IMG/VR virus record: IMGVR_UViG_3300012983_000030 | Direction: 5' to 3' (one strand) | From: a virus | Taxonomy: Duplodnaviria; Heunggongvirae; Uroviricota; Caudoviricetes | Length of the DNA stretch: 64,000 nt | Shown here: one piece after another, positions 11,680-56,092 of the stretch | Position numbering within the stretch: the stretch's first letter is position 1 | Layout of the letters: the number at the start of each line of letters is the position of its first letter | Position numbers and translations under genes: made by a program | The notes under the pieces: model-generated | Told to the model about the DNA's origin: nothing | The model's database searches: none | Seen by the model: the letters and a program-made list of their open reading frames with translations, nothing else

Positions 11680-13209
11680 TTATCCAAAATTCTTTAATTT
11701 TTGATATGGATTTGCACCATGATGTCTTGGTGCATCCGCTTGAGTATTACCTTCATATGGAACAAAAATTGAATAAGAAGTTGTAGAACGTCTAACATTA
11801 ACTTCTGGATCAAATTCTTTCAACAAAGTCAAAACAGCTCTATTAGTTTTAGAAGGATTATGTAATGCTAATAAATCTAAACCTTTATAGCGAGGATTTG
11901 TTTCTTGAATTTCTTTTAATATACTTTCAATTTGTGGATTAGTTAATTTTTTATATACTCCTGTATTCTTCGTTGCAGTACGTCTTGCCCATGTTTTAGG
12001 ATCTTTAGCCATATACCAAATATCTGGAGCATCTGTTTCTGTATTATATTCTTTACTTAACATAGACACTAATTCATTTGGAGTAATCTCTTCAGCTCTT
12101 GAACCTTTTTCAGTATTTTTTACCCAAGCTTTACCATCATTTATATCTATGATTTCGTATTCTTTTGGCTTTAAACCAATTTCTTTACCCCCTGGTACTT
12201 CATAAATATAACCTTGTCTAGAAAATTTTCTAGCCATTGCAGGACTAATGCCCCACATTTCTAAATAATGTTCAACTCTTTCTGTATTTCTAGGAGGAGT
12301 AGCTTCAGCGATAACTGATTCTTTATTGTCAGATTTTAATTTATATTCACCAGTATTCTTTAAAATTTGTATCCCATAATTAAATGGAAAACCTTTGATT
12401 TCTACTTCATCATATAATTTACGAATAGTAGCTAAAGATAAATTTTCTAACTCATCTTTATACGAATCTAAAAATTTTCTAGTTTTATTGCCTAATTCAA
12501 TATCACCTTTTATAGCTCTATCTTGCCATAATTCTGGAAAACCCATTTCTTCAGAATCTTTATAAATAACTTCATTTAAAAATGCATCATTATAACCATT
12601 ATGCATTATTTCATAAAACTGTTTAACTGGCATTGCGCGTTTTTCGCTTCTTTTTAAATAAGGAATTCCTTTATCAGTTCTGTCATAAAATACTTCTTTA
12701 TAATAAAGTTGTGTTTTATTTGCATCAAAACCTTCTTTATTGGCATTATCTATTCCCATTAATTGAATAACGTGTTTATTACCAGCATTATCAATAAATC
12801 TAAAAGGAGCTTTTGAATATTTACAATTTGGATGAACAGCTGCAGCTATAAAAGAATAAACTTCATCTGTTTTTGAATTACCTCTAGCCAAATCAACCCA
12901 AGCATCTTCAGCTTCTGTTTCACATAATATTTTATATTTAGATAATGCTTCATTTACTACTAATGACATAGATTTTCCAACATTAGTTGAAAATTCTTTT
13001 AGTTTAAAAATATGCTTAGATTCTACCATTTTTTCTAATTTATCCTTTGCTGTCATGACTTCAGGATTACGTTCAGCATATCCATCTTTCATTGATTCAA
13101 TATGTTTATTTAATTCTTTTAAAGCTAACTCTTCATCACCATCAAACTTACTAACTAAACCATCAATAATCTCTTTAGAAGACTTGTTTTCAAAATCTGA
13201 TTCTTTCAT
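11680..13209 (-). CDS. hypothetical protein (candidate internal head protein)
   Basis: 509-aa ORF in the head operon with multiple hydrophobic-x-E sites. Confidence 0.7.
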   Translation of the reverse strand: MKESDFENKSSKEIIDGLVSKFDGDEELALKELNKHIESMKDGYAERNPEVMTAKDKLEKMVESKHIFKLKEFSTNVGKSMSLVVNEALSKYKILCETEAEDAWVDLARGNSKTDEVYSFIAAAVHPNCKYSKAPFRFIDNAGNKHVIQLMGIDNANKEGFDANKTQLYYKEVFYDRTDKGIPYLKRSEKRAMPVKQFYEIMHNGYNDAFLNEVIYKDSEEMGFPELWQDRAIKGDIELGNKTRKFLDSYKDELENLSLATIRKLYDEVEIKGFPFNYGIQILKNTGEYKLKSDNKESVIAEATPPRNTERVEHYLEMWGISPAMARKFSRQGYIYEVPGGKEIGLKPKEYEIIDINDGKAWVKNTEKGSRAEEITPNELVSMLSKEYNTETDAPDIWYMAKDPKTWARRTATKNTGVYKKLTNPQIESILKEIQETNPRYKGLDLLALHNPSKTNRAVLTLLKEFDPEVNVRRSTTSYSIFVPYEGNTQADAPRHHGANPYQKLKNFG

Positions 13210-15473
13210 TATATAATATCCTCCAAAGATTCTACTGATAATTCTTCACTAATGCTTTCATAGTAAGCATCTTTTAATCTATTTAAAAACTCATTATTAC
13301 GTAATTCTTTAAAAAGAGAATTGCCTTTACCAAATTCGCCTTCGGTTGCCAAACTCTCTTTACGCATTTTTCCTAATTTTTTCCAAAGATTACCGATTAT
13401 GTTGGAATCTTTTGATTGTATAGCTTTTTCAATTTCATTTACAATATGATTATAACAAGTCATATCAGGATCAGCTATTTCACCTTCTAACTTTTCTGGT
13501 TTTTTAATCCATTCATCTTTTAATAGTGAATATATACCACCAGCAACTAAAGGAGTATTAATGTTTTCGCAACCAACTTCTACTTTTAAACCTTTAATTG
13601 TAATATCATATTTTGAATTAAATACTTTTTTTGCAATTTTTAAATATTGTTCTAAAATTTCACTATTAATTCCAACATTTTCAAAATCAAAAACTAAATG
13701 TAAATCAATATCACTATGCTCATTGTAATTATAATTTGCATTACTTCCAGTAAAATAAATATCTACTGGTGCAAATAGCACTTCTAAAGACTCTTCAAAA
13801 GTTTTTGCTATTTTCAACATAGCTTCTTTTATATCTGATTTTAATTTGTCATTTTCAAATAATTCAGGATTTAATTCTTTCTTAAATTCTGTTTCTGATA
13901 AAGTACCACCTGAAGATGTTTTATGTGGTGAAATACCAAATGAATCTATTTTGGCTTGTGTAATTCCTGAATTTACCGCAGATTCTTTTTTATTTAAAGT
14001 TAAAGTTTTACCAGTTCTTTGTAAATCACGTACTTTATCTAACTTCTTTTGAGCATTTAATCTTCTTTGCACTCTATTTAAGAAGTTTCCTTCCATATCT
14101 CCCTGATTTCTAGTATTTGCAGGTTGAACTGGATTATTTGCTAAAAATTCATCTTCAGCTTTATTTATTATATTTTGTCTATCTACTTCATCATCTAAGC
14201 TTTTTTCTAAGAAATAACGTACTTTATACAATCTTTGTAATTCAGCATCATCGTTATTTCCATATAATCTATCACGATGTTGAATTTCTCTAATTTTATT
14301 ATCTAAAGATAACAGTGCTTGATTGATAGACTGAATATAATTTCTATCACTAGTATAAGATATTATTTCATCACGTTGTTGTACTAATCTTCCTACTAAA
14401 TCGGCATTTGCTTGATTTTTAGTAATTTCTTTATTTAAATAATCAACAGCAGCTTTTTGATTTGGAGAAAGATATTTATTAAAATTACCAGAATTATATA
14501 CCGCTGACCAATATTTTAATTCTTCTTTTTCTTCTGGTGATAAATTATCTTTACTCTGTAAAGCTTTCATATTATTTTGAGCATTGGTTACCATTGTACG
14601 TCTAGCAGATTGAGGTCTAGAATTACCTTTTGTACCTTTTGTCGCCCATTCTGCTTTAATGTTTCCTTTTGCGATATAACGAATTGAATTTGGATCGTCT
14701 TCTTTTTGAATAATTATACCGTTATAACCTGTTTCAGCAGGAGCTGTATTATTACCAGCACCAAAGAAAAACATTTGATATAAAGTATCCCAAAATAATG
14801 GATTTTGATATTTTAAACCATCTTCTACATTAAAACGTAATGGCTTATTATAGATGATATCTTTTTCCATATTTATAGGTTTTTTATCAGAAATATATGT
14901 TTTTAATATATTCTGGTCTTTCAAATCCTTTGGATTATCTACAATATCATGAAAATCTTTAACTAAATATAACTTTACCTTAGATTCTGGAGGTATGTAT
15001 TCATCACCTTTTACATTACCTGTAAAATAAGGATGTAAATCTGATAAATCTTCAGTGATAACTGATTCATCCCAGCCTTTCTTTGCTGGACCTCTTGTAT
15101 TTGGGTTACCTTTTTGACGCTCTCTGTTTAAAGATGGAATATCATTTAATAATTTTACATAATAGTCAGATAACATATTATTTCCTCTCCATTTAGAAAA
15201 CGCAGTACTAAACATCATATACGCATCCAAATTACTCTTTGCGTTTTTTTCAATCCAATCAAATACAGAAGCTTCGAAAACTTTTCTACTAACTAAACCA
15301 CGTTTAGCCATCTTATCATAAAAATCTTTTTTATCGGTAAATAAACCAGAAACCACTTTAAACTGATTGGTTTCTGTATCTAATACAATACCTTTATATT
15401 TTTCGTAATTACCATCTTTAGCGTATTCTTTTAATGAATCGTCTTCAATTTCTTTAAACAATTTTATAGGCAT
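13209..15473 (-). CDS. large protein with C-terminal Pol-beta-type nucleotidyltransferase domain
   Basis: TGSNANYNY...SDIDLH and GEF..GN..FKELR motifs in the last ~230 aa. Confidence 0.75.
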   Translation of the reverse strand: MPIKLFKEIEDDSLKEYAKDGNYEKYKGIVLDTETNQFKVVSGLFTDKKDFYDKMAKRGLVSRKVFEASVFDWIEKNAKSNLDAYMMFSTAFSKWRGNNMLSDYYVKLLNDIPSLNRERQKGNPNTRGPAKKGWDESVITEDLSDLHPYFTGNVKGDEYIPPESKVKLYLVKDFHDIVDNPKDLKDQNILKTYISDKKPINMEKDIIYNKPLRFNVEDGLKYQNPLFWDTLYQMFFFGAGNNTAPAETGYNGIIIQKEDDPNSIRYIAKGNIKAEWATKGTKGNSRPQSARRTMVTNAQNNMKALQSKDNLSPEEKEELKYWSAVYNSGNFNKYLSPNQKAAVDYLNKEITKNQANADLVGRLVQQRDEIISYTSDRNYIQSINQALLSLDNKIREIQHRDRLYGNNDDAELQRLYKVRYFLEKSLDDEVDRQNIINKAEDEFLANNPVQPANTRNQGDMEGNFLNRVQRRLNAQKKLDKVRDLQRTGKTLTLNKKESAVNSGITQAKIDSFGISPHKTSSGGTLSETEFKKELNPELFENDKLKSDIKEAMLKIAKTFEESLEVLFAPVDIYFTGSNANYNYNEHSDIDLHLVFDFENVGINSEILEQYLKIAKKVFNSKYDITIKGLKVEVGCENINTPLVAGGIYSLLKDEWIKKPEKLEGEIADPDMTCYNHIVNEIEKAIQSKDSNIIGNLWKKLGKMRKESLATEGEFGKGNSLFKELRNNEFLNRLKDAYYESISEELSVESLEDII

Positions 15474-20967: not shown

Positions 20968-22617
20968 TTACATCATTCCAGTTGGCATCATATTAAGATT
21001 AACACCTTTGTTTTCAATAGGATCAACTGCAATCATAACATTCGAAGTAAGAGCTACAGCAGCAATAGAAGAAGCTGCATATACAGTTCCTTTTACTACC
21101 TTACAAGGATCATAAATACCTTCTTCAAGCAAATTAACAACTTCCAAACTCTTTGCATTGTATCCAATATTTATATCCTTTTTAGCCAATACTTCACGCA
21201 TTACTAATTCAACTGGAACTCCTGCATTTTCAAGAATTGTCTTGAAAGGAGCTTTCATTGCATTAGCAAATACTTTTATACCAAGTGCTTCATCTGTATT
21301 ATTTGAAAGTACTTCACTTTCAATTTTTTCAGATAAATGCAACAATGTATTACCCGCACCTGGCAAATAACCTTCCTCTAAAGCAGCTTTAACTGCATAT
21401 TGAGCATCATCTAATCTATCACGTAATTCTTTAATTTCTTCTTCTGAAGAACCACCTACTTGAATTACCGCTACACCTGTAGTAAGAGAAGCTAAACGTT
21501 TACCTAATTGTTCTCTTTCAAAAGTATCATTTTCTTTTAAAGCACCAATTAAGCCTTCGATTGCTTCAACTCTTGCTGCAATCTTGGTTACATCACCTCT
21601 ACCACCGCGAATAATTGTTTCATCTTTTTTAATAACAATTTTTTCACAACTACCAAAATCAGCAGTAGTCATTGTATCATACTTGATGCCCATTGGATCA
21701 TCACCAACATTAGCACCGGTATAAATACCTAAATCACGAAGGATATCTAAACGACGATCTCCATATCCAGGTGCTTCAACACAAGCAACTTTTAATTGTC
21801 CACCTGTTCTGAAAATATTCATAGCTAAACCTTGTGTAACGCTAGTATCAAAAGATTCTGCTATTACTACAACTGGAGTACCATTCTGTACAGTACCTTG
21901 AATTAACTGAATTAATGCTCCAAAATTTGAAATTTTTGAATTACAAAGTAAAATTTTTGGATTATCAAATTCAACTGTTTGTTCTTCATGATTTGTTACA
22001 AAAAATTGTGAAGTCCAACCTTTATTAAAAGTCATACCTTCTTTAAATTCTAAACGAATATCACGATCTTTTGTTTCTTCAACTAATACTACACCTGCTT
22101 TTCCAACTTTTTGATAGGCTTCTGCAACAATTTTACCTAATTTTTCATCACCATTGGCTGAAACAGTAGCAACATTTATCAAATCTTGATCCGTTTTAAC
22201 TTCTATTGCTAAATTATCAAGTTGTGAAATAACATAATCTCTAGCTTTTTCAATACCTCTTCTAAAAGAAGTACGATTTACAGCATGTTCACTTAATTCA
22301 ATTTGACGAATACCACCATTTACAATAGCTTGGCCAATTACTGTAGCACTAGTTGTACCATCACCAACAGAATCCATTTGTTTTTGAGCGATTGAAATAG
22401 CTAAATCAGCTCCTAATTTAACTTTTTCATCTTTTGGTGAAATTTCTTTAGCAACACTAACACCGTCTTTAGTAATAATTGGCATTTTATCTTCGCGTTG
22501 AATAACTACTGTATTTCCAGCTGGACCTAAAGTAGATCTAACAGCATTTGCTACTAAATTCAAACCTTCCACTAAATAATTTTGAGTATCTTTTCCAAAA
22601 TATGCAGATTTACTCAT
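20968..22617 (-). CDS. groEL: chaperonin GroEL
   Basis: TLGP.G, ITKDGVSVAKEI, GDGTTS, APGYGDRR, EEG..PG.G and DP.KV motifs. Confidence 0.97.
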   Translation of the reverse strand: MSKSAYFGKDTQNYLVEGLNLVANAVRSTLGPAGNTVVIQREDKMPIITKDGVSVAKEISPKDEKVKLGADLAISIAQKQMDSVGDGTTSATVIGQAIVNGGIRQIELSEHAVNRTSFRRGIEKARDYVISQLDNLAIEVKTDQDLINVATVSANGDEKLGKIVAEAYQKVGKAGVVLVEETKDRDIRLEFKEGMTFNKGWTSQFFVTNHEEQTVEFDNPKILLCNSKISNFGALIQLIQGTVQNGTPVVVIAESFDTSVTQGLAMNIFRTGGQLKVACVEAPGYGDRRLDILRDLGIYTGANVGDDPMGIKYDTMTTADFGSCEKIVIKKDETIIRGGRGDVTKIAARVEAIEGLIGALKENDTFEREQLGKRLASLTTGVAVIQVGGSSEEEIKELRDRLDDAQYAVKAALEEGYLPGAGNTLLHLSEKIESEVLSNNTDEALGIKVFANAMKAPFKTILENAGVPVELVMREVLAKKDINIGYNAKSLEVVNLLEEGIYDPCKVVKGTVYAASSIAAVALTSNVMIAVDPIENKGVNLNMMPTGMM

Positions 22618-51858: not shown

Positions 51859-51984
51859 TATGTTCTATTTAGTGTTTGGAAAATTAATTTTTTAGAAAAT
51901 TATACTTTCAGACTTCTATTTTATATGAGAGATATGAAACTCTTTAAAACATATTGTAATTTTTTTTAGAATAGGAATAATATT

Positions 51985-52803
51985 ATGCCAAAACAAATTA
52001 ACGTAGAATGGATGAATGAAGTGTTAAACGATAGAAGTGAAAAAAATGAGTTTTCAGGAGATTTGCCAAGAATTGATTGGGTTCAAAATGGCAAAGGCTT
52101 CAAAAAAGAATTAAAATTTAAGTTGTTACAACCAAATAGTAAAGAAAATAATATCTTTAGTTATTTAGTTGGTACACACTGGTTAAATGATGTTAACGGT
52201 ACAGGTCAAAATAAACGTTTTGTATGTACTGAACAAACTCAGCACTTGAAGAAATTAGGAATGGAATGCCCAATTTGTGCAGCAAAACGTGCATTGTTGG
52301 CAAAAGGATTTACTGAAGAACAATTATCTGTTCAAGGTAAATATGGTTTAATTCCATTATTTGATCCTAAACTTACTTCAAATACAAAAATTGTTGTATT
52401 AGATTCTGATGTTAAACATGATTGGGACAAAGCTCACGTGTCTATTTTACAACAAAATGGTTCATTTTTAACAAAATGGTTAGTTGAGCGTTACGTTGAT
52501 GCTGATACTCCTGATTTGTTACAAATGGAAAAAAGTAATATTATTAAATTTAGCCGTCCTACTGAAAATGGTAGATGGGATAGAGAGATTGGTTTTGCTA
52601 CATTTGAACCTACTCCAGAAGTTTTAGCTAAACTCAGAGAAGAAAATGAAGCAATCACAATGCCAGATTTGTGGAAAATGCCGTCTGATACTGAAATTCT
52701 TGAAATGAAACAGATTATGGCTGATACTATTAAGTCATACACAGAAGCCAGAGAAACAGTCAATGCAACTTCAATAGCAGACGATGATGATATTCCATTT
52801 TAA
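51985..52803 (+). CDS. single-stranded DNA-binding protein (gp32-like)
   Basis: HW...C...CPIC Zn motif; acidic tail DDDDIPF. Confidence 0.8.
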   Translation: MPKQINVEWMNEVLNDRSEKNEFSGDLPRIDWVQNGKGFKKELKFKLLQPNSKENNIFSYLVGTHWLNDVNGTGQNKRFVCTEQTQHLKKLGMECPICAAKRALLAKGFTEEQLSVQGKYGLIPLFDPKLTSNTKIVVLDSDVKHDWDKAHVSILQQNGSFLTKWLVERYVDADTPDLLQMEKSNIIKFSRPTENGRWDREIGFATFEPTPEVLAKLREENEAITMPDLWKMPSDTEILEMKQIMADTIKSYTEARETVNATSIADDDDIPF

Positions 52804-53857: not shown

Positions 53858-54889
53858 ATGGCTAAAATAAAAAAAGCTAAAATATCAAAAAGAACTAATC
53901 GTAAACAAAATTTAAAGAAGTTTTTTGATTCTGGTTGTACAGATATTCAAGCTTTTTTTAATGCTTGTAAAAATGATGAAAATCTTTTAATTTATACTTG
54001 TTTAACCAATGAAGAATTACAAGAACATATTGATAAATTAAAAGAAATTGAAGATAACAATGCAAAAATTGAGTATCTTACTAATAATCAACCAATAATG
54101 AATGAAACTCCAGAAAGATTTAATAGAGTTACTGAGTCAATCGCTAAGTATTTAAAAGGTTATATTGAGTACAATGGTTTTAGAATGTCCAATAGTGATG
54201 GAGACAATGAGGATTGGACTTCTGAGTTTTGGGCAAAATATTGTAAAATATGTGATTTTTATCGTACTCGTTGGTTTTATCCTGATAGATTAAAGAAAGA
54301 ATCAACTGTTACTTTTAATCCAATGCTCTATAAAGAATTTATTTATATTTGTCGTATGAGCATTACTGGTGAACGTAAACACCAAGCTTTTTTAGCAACA
54401 CAAAATGAAAATTCTTCTATCTTTAAATTCTCTTTAGATAATAAAATAGAAGGTGGTACAGATAATGATAAAACTTTAGCTGATGTTATACCAGATGAAG
54501 ATAGAGGTTCAGATGCTTTATTGGAATCTGCTAATATGAATAGGATTTTTGAAAAAGCATTAGCTTTATGCAAACAATATCCAGATGCTAAAGAAAATTA
54601 TAATCAAATTCGTAGTTTTTATGAAAAACAAGATACTGCTGATTTTGATAAAAAGACTGTTATTTTAGGCAAAATCTTTTTATATAAAGCGGGTTTAGTA
54701 TCACCAAAAATTTTAGCTTTTATAAAATCACTTTCATCTACTTATAAAGCACGTTATAATATAAGTGCGGCTAGAATTACTGCTCAAATGAAAGAAATGA
54801 AAAATCACAAAGTATACAAGTATGTTAAAAAGAAATCAAATAATGTTGGTTGGCGTGAATTAATTTTGCGTAAAAGAGGTGAATTATAA
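53858..54889 (+). CDS. putative phage sigma-factor-like protein
   Basis: SLDNKIEGGTDNDKTLADVIPD matches the sigma region-3.2 pattern SLD...TL.D.I.D; upstream helical segment is compatible with region 2. Confidence 0.5.
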   Translation: MAKIKKAKISKRTNRKQNLKKFFDSGCTDIQAFFNACKNDENLLIYTCLTNEELQEHIDKLKEIEDNNAKIEYLTNNQPIMNETPERFNRVTESIAKYLKGYIEYNGFRMSNSDGDNEDWTSEFWAKYCKICDFYRTRWFYPDRLKKESTVTFNPMLYKEFIYICRMSITGERKHQAFLATQNENSSIFKFSLDNKIEGGTDNDKTLADVIPDEDRGSDALLESANMNRIFEKALALCKQYPDAKENYNQIRSFYEKQDTADFDKKTVILGKIFLYKAGLVSPKILAFIKSLSSTYKARYNISAARITAQMKEMKNHKVYKYVKKKSNNVGWRELILRKRGEL

Positions 54890-55479
54890 TGACTAAAGAA
54901 GTGGCTGCTATTTTTGCTATTGGTCCTAATGATATAATAGGGATAAAAGATAAAATGCCTTGGCATTCTAAACAAGATTTTTATCATTTTAAAAAAATTA
55001 CTAAAGGATATCCTTGTTTGTTTGGTGCAACTACTTTTCATGGTTTACCTAAATATCCATTAGCAGATAGATTAAATGTTGTATTAGATAATACAAAACC
55101 TGATACTATTTCTGCTAATTTTGGATATAGTGATATAAATACTTCTTGTAGAGGTGGTTATGTTACTATAAATGATTTTGATTGTGCATTAGATTTTTGT
55201 GCAAATTTTGAAAAAATATTTATATGTGGAGGAGCCTCTATTTATAAATATGTTTTAGAAAATAACAAAGTTAATACTTTATATATTACTCGTATTATTT
55301 CACCTGAATTACAAAGAGAATTTAATAATAATGAAAAAGAGTATGTAAAGTTTCCAGTAGATTTACATGCTTATTTATCAAAAGATTGGGTAAGAGTTCC
55401 ATTTGAATATAAAACAAATGAATTACCAGAAGAAAATGATAATATTACGGTACAATTTCAAAAATGGATTAAAATATAA
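54889..55479 (+). CDS. folA: dihydrofolate reductase
   Basis: IG....MPWH...D..HFK..T, G.TTF, PL..R.NVVL, ICGG.SIY, LYIT.I. Confidence 0.95.
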   Translation: MTKEVAAIFAIGPNDIIGIKDKMPWHSKQDFYHFKKITKGYPCLFGATTFHGLPKYPLADRLNVVLDNTKPDTISANFGYSDINTSCRGGYVTINDFDCALDFCANFEKIFICGGASIYKYVLENNKVNTLYITRIISPELQREFNNNEKEYVKFPVDLHAYLSKDWVRVPFEYKTNELPEENDNITVQFQKWIKI

Positions 55480-55499
55480 TTGTATTTGTTCTAAATATT

Positions 55500-55567
55500 G
55501 TCGAAGTATTCGTACTACGATAAGACGACTAAGGTTTTTCCCTCCTTTTACCTAGTCGTCTTTTTTA
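55500..55567 (+). ncRNA. candidate two-hairpin small RNA with anti-SD loop (may double as terminator)
   Basis: GTTCTA motif at 55488; UUCG hairpin 55501-55520; 13-bp bulged stem with loop TTTTCCCTCCTTTT; T-run. Confidence 0.5.
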
Positions 55568-55654
55568 TTATCCAAATACAATTAAAAATCATCAATTTGT
55601 GTAGTTCAGTTCTAATATAATAGTTAATAAATCTTAGAAACGAATGGGTATACA

Positions 55655-56092
55655 ATGGCAAATAAATTAAAACCTAATCAGGTATATAAGTGTATTGCAG
55701 GTTCAATCGCATCTGCTTCTTTTCATGTAATTGGTGGTACAGTAACTGTTAAAGGTTCAAACGTAACTATTGCAAAATTATATAAAGCTAGTGTTATGAC
55801 AGAAGAAAATCTACCAAAAGATGCTGCTGAAGGTGATACTTATACAATCATAAAAGATAAAAAACATGTTACTTGGTATAAAGGCCAATGGACTGAAATT
55901 GATGTAAACAAACTAAATGGATTAATTGTTCCAGAGTTATCAGAATTAGTTGAAACAGGAGATACTTTAGGAGAAGGTATTCATTTAATTGCTGGTTTAC
56001 CAGAATGGATTGCCTTTGAAGGTGATGCAACAGAAATTTGGGCTAAAGCTGGAGTAGATGTACGCTTTGTAAATAGCTTAGATGGAGAATAA
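55655..56092 (+). CDS. hypothetical virion protein
   Basis: First gene after the GTTCTA motif at 55609. Confidence 0.65.
   Translation: MANKLKPNQVYKCIAGSIASASFHVIGGTVTVKGSNVTIAKLYKASVMTEENLPKDAAEGDTYTIIKDKKHVTWYKGQWTEIDVNKLNGLIVPELSELVETGDTLGEGIHLIAGLPEWIAFEGDATEIWAKAGVDVRFVNSLDGE

Follow-up and report, generated by a model that had tools for sequence, protein, structure and literature searches.

The window, the whole stretch of 64,000 nucleotides that was analysed, belongs to a T4-related jumbo phage of ruminant guts that has not been cultured. It is AT-rich (26.6% GC), and a T4-type portal, a prohead protease and a gp46/47-like SbcCD nuclease mark its relatedness to T4; its further products include a dihydrofolate reductase (DHFR) and tail-fibre-like proteins. 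Nine studies have recovered near-identical DNA, from the gut metagenomes of sheep, cattle and others. A megablast search of the window against 50,697 phage records returned no matches, and a tblastn search of the DHFR against phages gave nothing above 33% identity. The phage also encodes a GroEL-type chaperonin (20968–22617, minus strand; phrog_5725, E = 3e-125). Within the head-gene region, a 753-aa protein (13209–15473, minus strand) is encoded behind a GTTCTA box and may be an RNA-tailing enzyme, as its palm domain resembles those of nucleotidyltransferases or poly(A) polymerases (PF01909, PF22600).

The DHFR gene is separated from the next gene, which encodes a 145-aa protein, by a gap of 175 nt that houses the RNA unit described here. 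The features of the locus are as follows.

54889–55479, plus strand: DHFR gene, 196 aa (PF00186, 2.2e-22; phrog_316, 8.8e-31)
55477–55479, plus strand: DHFR stop codon TAA, read directly
55477–55488, no strand assigned: left arm of an inverted repeat, TAATTGTATTTG, lineage-specific and probably incidental
55488–55569, plus strand: candidate small RNA (sRNA) gene from box to T-run, the extent under the preferred reading
55488–55493, plus strand: GTTCTA, promoter-like box of the candidate sRNA, invariant in nine of nine units
About 55500–55567, plus strand: predicted RNA of ~68 nt under the promoter-to-terminator reading
55500–55521, plus strand: 5' hairpin (hairpin 1), TCGAAGTA-TTCG-TACTACGA at 55501–55520 with one A/A mismatch, extended by G55500/U55521
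55522–55562, plus strand: terminator hairpin (hairpin 2), a 13-bp stem around a 14-nt loop, with a single bulged A
55522–55535, plus strand: 5' arm of hairpin 2, AAGACGACTAAGGT, containing the bulged A
55536–55549, plus strand: open loop of hairpin 2, TTTTCCCTCCTTTT, with the anti-Shine–Dalgarno (anti-SD) core CCUCCUUU, an exact read
55550–55562, plus strand: 3' arm of hairpin 2, ACCTAGTCGTCTT, read directly
55563–55569, plus strand: T-run TTTTATT, where both the RNA and the DHFR operon transcript are predicted to end
55573–55584, no strand assigned: right arm of the inverted repeat, CAAATACAATTA, a perfect 12/12 match to the left arm
55609–55614, plus strand: second GTTCTA box, belonging to the next gene and 46 nt before its start at 55655
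55655–56092: downstream 145-aa gene, head of the tail-fibre operon

The original prediction had described a candidate sRNA with an anti-SD loop between the arms of the repeat, and direct reading of the DNA located every one of the features that it listed in its place.

Folding of the unit and the GTTCTA box

The 108-nt unit folds with a predicted energy of −30.4 kcal/mol (z = −6.7; none of 200 shuffles was as good), and a 72-nt RNA that excludes the inverted repeat still folds with a z-score of −4.9. The two-hairpin shape is common to all six of the units that were tested (z from −4.5 to −6.2). A hairpin with a CCTCC loop and a T-run, intergenic and in the sense orientation, occurs only once in the window. 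The stem and T-run of hairpin 2 are those of an intrinsic terminator (13 bp and TTTTATT), as they are in the orthologues, on the plus strand only. The loop of an intrinsic terminator is usually short (3–8 nt), but that of hairpin 2 has 14 nt and those of the orthologues have 12–17 nt; the other intergenic terminators in the window have loops of 4–7 nt at full pairing. A standard terminator scan, which allowed loops of up to 8 nt, overlooked hairpin 2 because its loop is longer than this. The core unit goes well beyond an ordinary terminator.

GTTCTA occurs 26 times in the window, and 14 of these sites lie in intergenic DNA, which makes up 6% of the sequence. Each of the 14 is in the sense orientation, 12–167 nt (mostly 29–75 nt) before a start codon, and the genes that they precede include the prohead protease gene and the tail-fibre operon. 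Intergenic DNA in front of genes is thus strongly enriched in the motif, which we treat as a promoter-like box, its promoter role being suggested by position and conservation. The next gene does have a GTTCTA motif of its own, as had been noted. If the box of the candidate sRNA occupies positions −12 to −7, as a −10 element would, the first transcribed base would be the invariant G at 55500. Elsewhere in the window, a GTTCTA box at 51862 (GTTCTATTTAGTG...) lies 123 nt before the start at 51985, compared with the usual 29–75 nt, and the long leader between them (51862–51984) could hold another structured or noncoding element.

Orthologous units in related phages

Relatives were sought by protein-guided searches of IMG/VR, JGI metagenomes and GTDB MAG bins, which yielded loci with DHFRs 44–91% identical to that of the window. 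The comparison set comprises nine sequences from seven lineages: the window, L007 (91% DHFR identity), L041 (81%), L003 and L042 (57–59%), L008 (52%), L005 (47%; identical to L006 and L009), L043 (46%) and L010 (44%). L041 (JAZNQD010000009.1, 249 kb) and L043 (JAFZWP010000001.1, 245 kb) are both related phage genomes. The DHFR relatives P0002–P0030 (45–80% identical) were left out of the unit comparison. In every examined locus with a DHFR identity of at least 44% the unit sits 3–15 nt past the DHFR stop codon; it is absent at the more distant DHFR loci L011, L012, L045 and L046, where the contexts differ. Exact-pattern scans of IMG/VR with the hairpin and two 17-mers found no new relatives, and matches to GTTCTAAATATTGTC elsewhere in IMG/VR were rejected as chance occurrences located inside genes.

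The order of elements is the same in all nine units: GTTCTA is followed by exactly six variable AT-rich bases and then by GTC. The 5' hairpin starts at this GTC in every orthologue and differs in sequence and in length (22 to 58 nt). Natural variation inside the unit of the window is limited to 55511 C>T and 55512 G>A, two changes in the hairpin 1 loop (UUCG to UUUA) that are carried by L007 and by one sheep-gut run; the DNA contigs compared with the locus represented near-identical strains only. Every orthologue has a T-run after the terminator hairpin on the plus strand and none on the minus strand. Essentially all stem nucleotides vary between orthologues, as do the hairpin 1 loop and the flanks. 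The original prediction had made the sRNA depend on conservation of the loop. This conservation is borne out: CCTCCTTT, inside the open terminator loop of 12–17 nt, is invariant across the nine sequences and seven lineages, while the stems have been replaced by compensatory changes. The terminator stem is 9–13 bp long, with a different sequence in each lineage, as the following arms illustrate.

Window: AAGACGAC..GTCGTCTT
L003: AGAGTAGC..GCTACTCT
L005: CCCGGTGG..CCACCGGG
L008: CCCAGCGG..CCGCTGGG
L010: GCAGGTAG..CTACCTGC

A covariance search in related phages had been proposed along with the sRNA. A model built from the window hairpin alone (R1) finds all of the orthologues, with E values from 9e-7 to 0.04, and nothing else significant in 125 kb. 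In alignment A8, which contains eight distinct rows from seven lineages and was fitted to the model, so that pairing counts are favoured, 98.8% of the cells are standard pairs and both sides have changed at 10 of the 13 pairs. The covariation score of A8 is 0.84, compared with 0.31 ± 0.05 in shuffles, and was reached by none of the 500 shuffles; when the partner is slid by 1–3 columns, pairing falls to 26–56%.

The RNA was assigned to the plus strand because the G·U pairs of L003, L008 and L010 and the one-sided T-run fit this strand alone. A minus-strand reading, in which an SD-like loop would act as a ribosome-binding site (RBS), was rejected: no start codon follows the loop, the T-run is missing and the G·U pairs would turn into A·C. 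The refined model gives exactly one strong match per phage genome, the weaker matches being ordinary short-loop terminators, and the pattern TYCCTCCTTTT has a single occurrence on both strands of a 231-kb relative (G002, IMGVR_UViG_3300028797_000096). Further copies are ruled out by these model and pattern scans and the unit is single-copy. In G002, the perfect complement of the loop, the 11-mer AAAAGGAGGRA, is found on either strand nowhere except as the RNA's own loop. An Rfam cmscan with all 4227 families gave no relevant match at E values up to 10 for the window region and up to 1 for four orthologous loci, and the covariance models of LhrC, RsaE, RNAIII and alpha-r14/cuckoo were unmatched. 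The RNA family itself is uncatalogued, and its design is that of the known anti-SD or C-rich loop sRNAs.

The gene downstream of the unit is not constant. It is the 145-aa gene in the window and L007 and a large gene (>767 aa) in L005, and in L003, L041 and L042 a reverse ORF of 111–118 aa, absent from the window, lies directly behind the terminator. Two of these inserted ORFs are located as follows.

L003, 5972–6328, minus strand: inserted reverse ORF
L041, 3184–3519, minus strand: inserted reverse ORF

The terminator hairpin of these three relatives therefore stands between convergent genes, and the changing neighbour indicates that the unit belongs with the 3' end of the DHFR gene and not with a downstream leader. 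A GTTCTA box precedes the downstream gene in L003, L005, L008, L010 and L043 as well, although the gene and the surrounding sequence differ. A role as 5' leader or as attenuator for the next gene was rejected, as that gene has its own box and either differs between relatives or is preceded by the reverse ORF.

The anti-SD loop and the role of the unit

The core of the loop is predicted to be unpaired with a probability of 0.91–1.00 in all of the orthologues. As in the class of sRNAs with C-rich or anti-SD loops, the motif is unpaired in a loop and is conserved while the stems vary. The predicted duplexes between the loop and AAAGGAGG-type sites have energies of −11 to −15 kcal/mol, and a 16S-type tail performs similarly. 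The loop had been described as complementary to the RBS type used by many genes of this phage. This holds in so far as ~60% of the genes have a 4-mer SD core; the GGAGG form itself precedes 3 of 67 genes, compared with 8 of 50 on contigs from the 'Bacilli' MAG bins in which related phages were also binned. A common SD of the phage is AAAGGAG, with which the loop would pair about as well as with any host site. Since the phage genes mostly use AAAGGAG, the RNA should bind these sites too, and SD pairing does not account for selectivity. The SDs of GTTCTA-proximal genes are weaker, but only as a nonsignificant trend (one-sided p = 0.055). Neither this trend nor the GGAGG comparison is relied on, given the small samples and the uncertain host.

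The host label 'Bacilli' derives from MAG binning alone and is a weak hint. L041 and L043 were binned in MAGs of 1.7–2.0 Mb labelled 'Bacilli bacterium', whose other contigs have 30–33% GC and use SDs; L048–L051 are listed with them, and under table 11 just 53% of contig L048 is coding. A third relative lies in a Succinivibrionaceae bin, which makes binning unreliable for assigning the host. None of the three MAG bins with contigs of related phages yielded a 16S rRNA.

With moderate confidence, we read the unit, with its conserved box, spacing and loop, its covarying stem, its defined strand and its single copy per genome, as a promoter-to-terminator sRNA that occludes SD sequences and also terminates the DHFR operon. 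The open loop always shows CCUCCUUU, the sequence with which the ribosome docks mRNA, so the RNA probably covers ribosome-binding sites; known RNAs of such design cover SD sequences, and SD occlusion was adopted as the reading for this reason. If the box is active at this locus, transcription would start at G55500, seven bases past GTTCTA, and the 5'-terminal hairpin would probably protect the 5' end of the RNA. The intrinsic terminator, with its unusually large and permanently open loop, would display UUUUCCCUCCUUUU, and the RNA would end in the U-tail to give about 68 nt. The same hairpin would double as the terminator of the DHFR operon, in which case the loop would also be present at the 3' end of the mRNA. 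The loop copies the mRNA-docking core of 16S rRNA (CCUCCUUU) and would most likely pair with AAAGGAGG-type SDs, blocking 30S subunits from binding, and the RNA–SD duplex may then undergo degradation.

The original prediction had spoken of a late sRNA of ~65 nt. The fixed box spacing, the invariant loop and the covariation of the stem support its core, a discrete RNA of about 68 nt with an anti-SD loop. The late timing is suggested by one feature, the GTTCTA box that the candidate shares with structural genes. A stronger version of SD occlusion, in which a late-made anti-SD mimic competes with 30S subunits for strong SDs throughout the cell and thereby shuts down host and early-phage mRNAs to the benefit of late messages, is doubtful. 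Late phage messages would be favoured here since their first genes tend toward weak or no SDs. If true, the late mimic would be an RNA counterpart of T4 RegB and RegA and a new form of viral takeover of translation.

That the unit is only the terminator of the DHFR operon is unlikely. Its pyrimidine loop would then be conserved as a protein site, for example for a termination or antitermination factor from the phage or the host, and the unit would form a regulated boundary between the replication and tail-fibre genes, with any free small RNA irrelevant. The hairpin and T-run are indeed those of a textbook terminator, the first strong one after a long series of plus-strand genes, and it is located at the module boundary in all of the relatives. 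However, every lineage also has GTTCTA, the fixed 6-nt spacing and the 5' hairpin between the stop codon and the terminator, all of which would be superfluous for a bare terminator. The downstream genes, moreover, possess their own GTTCTA box, and the reverse ORF that follows in L003, L041 and L042 argues against control of downstream read-through as a conserved purpose.

The constant position of the unit after the DHFR gene would also be expected of a cis-acting element in the 3'-UTR of the DHFR mRNA, the loop of which would fold onto an SD of its own operon or block 3' exonucleases and so tune expression or stability. The DHFR gene and the genes upstream of it have good SDs (AAGAGGTGA, AAAGGAGTGA), but the DHFR SD is not conserved, L003 having AAAGGAA and, ahead of the gene, an additional 83-aa ORF. 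A function in stability alone would not hold the loop sequence invariant, and such an element explains neither the conserved GTTCTA box nor the 5' hairpin, all of which makes a cis-acting element improbable.

The identity of the invariant core with the 16S docking core would also suit a decoy, in which the loop imitates the 3' tail of 16S rRNA and sequesters a protein with no mRNA pairing. The protein could be a ribosome-maturation factor, an S1 or S21-type protein, an rRNA-targeting toxin or a defence nuclease, and the missing target selectivity would pose no problem. In 16S rRNA, however, the sequence is a free 3' tail beside helix 45 and not a hairpin loop, and known RNAs with such loops work by pairing; we consider a decoy to be quite improbable.

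The 12-bp inverted repeat, which had been proposed to frame the unit, is perfect and lies where it had been reported, but it is neither part of the conserved unit nor beyond chance. Only the window and L007, ~97% identical over the whole gap, have the repeat, and no counterpart was found in L005, L008 or L010. The window contains 12 pairs of 12-bp inverted repeats spaced 20–130 nt apart, compared with 5.2 ± 3.6 (maximum 12) in Markov shuffles. As the repeat is missing in the distant orthologues and such repeats are common by chance, it is treated as incidental. Although the unit is bracketed by this repeat and spanned by a 40-codon frame starting with TTG, a reading as a tiny protein-coding gene, or as a DNA-level or mobile element with the repeat as its boundary, can be dismissed as highly improbable, given the distribution of the repeat, the absence of SDs from the frames in the unit, the variation of frame and length between lineages (in which no conserved ORF was found within the unit), the nonconservative effect of the compensatory stem changes on the frames, and the G·U pairs, which indicate an RNA on one strand.

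Comparison with known systems

The phage-encoded sRNAs that are understood functionally belong mostly to temperate enterobacterial phages and act on specific targets. A phage RNA that displays a generic anti-SD sequence was not found in a 2025 review of phage sRNAs (PMC12197685) or in text searches of the literature. If the SD-occluding RNA is produced and does pair with ribosome-binding sites, this clade of rumen jumbo phages would carry an RNA tool directed against translation initiation itself, with a bearing on the early-to-late switch and host shut-off of large phages. The combination of a 5' hairpin with a loop-presenting terminator would also offer a compact natural scaffold for synthetic translational repressors.

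The closest parallels in design are the sRNAs with C-rich (UCCC) loops found in Gram-positive bacteria of low GC content, namely LhrC of Listeria, RNAIII, RsaE and SprD of S. aureus and FsrA of B. subtilis, which are short and carry a C-rich motif in an open loop that pairs with the SD and blocks initiation. The terminator loop of LhrC (CUCCC...UUUU) binds the SD region of lapB, and the UCCC motif is used likewise by RNAIII, RsaE, SprD and FsrA (PMC4132741). The phage RNA shares with LhrC a 5' hairpin, a terminator with the functional loop and an AT-rich setting, with the pairing of the phage RNA being a prediction. Unlike these sRNAs, the phage unit is encoded by a virulent-type jumbo phage and not by a chromosome, has a phage promoter-like box in front and presents a single motif with the fuller 16S-like core CCUCCUUU.

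The loops of the 'cuckoo' sRNAs (alpha-r14/RSs0680) of alphaproteobacteria carry CCUCCUCCC on variable stems that drift by compensatory changes (PMC4615179). The likeness lies in an anti-SD-like loop motif as the sole conserved sequence on covarying stems. The cuckoo RNAs differ in having two to four adjacent hairpins, each with CCUCCUCCC, whereas the motif of the phage RNA is confined to the terminator loop and reads CCUCCUUU; the hosts and the genomic setting are not alike either.

In its position the unit resembles sRNAs of the DapZ and MicL type, which are enterobacterial, Hfq-dependent 3'-end sRNAs that have their own promoter and share the terminator of an mRNA. In both cases a promoter, putative in the phage unit, lies at or just behind the end of an ORF and the mRNA terminator of the gene is reused by the sRNA. 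The seed of DapZ and MicL is, however, single-stranded rather than a terminator loop, and they have no homology to the phage unit. The GTTCTA box may be a late promoter comparable to those of the T4 TATAAATA type, which are short conserved boxes located at a fixed short distance before the transcript start and ahead of virion genes; GTTCTA is conserved at orthologous sites and precedes the prohead protease and tail-fibre genes. The possible role of the RNA also has a parallel in T4, in which two phage proteins, the nuclease RegB and the repressor RegA, inactivate early mRNAs at the SD or RBS. This is an analogy of role only, to an RBS-directed reprogramming of translation during infection, which here would be the work of a base-pairing RNA.
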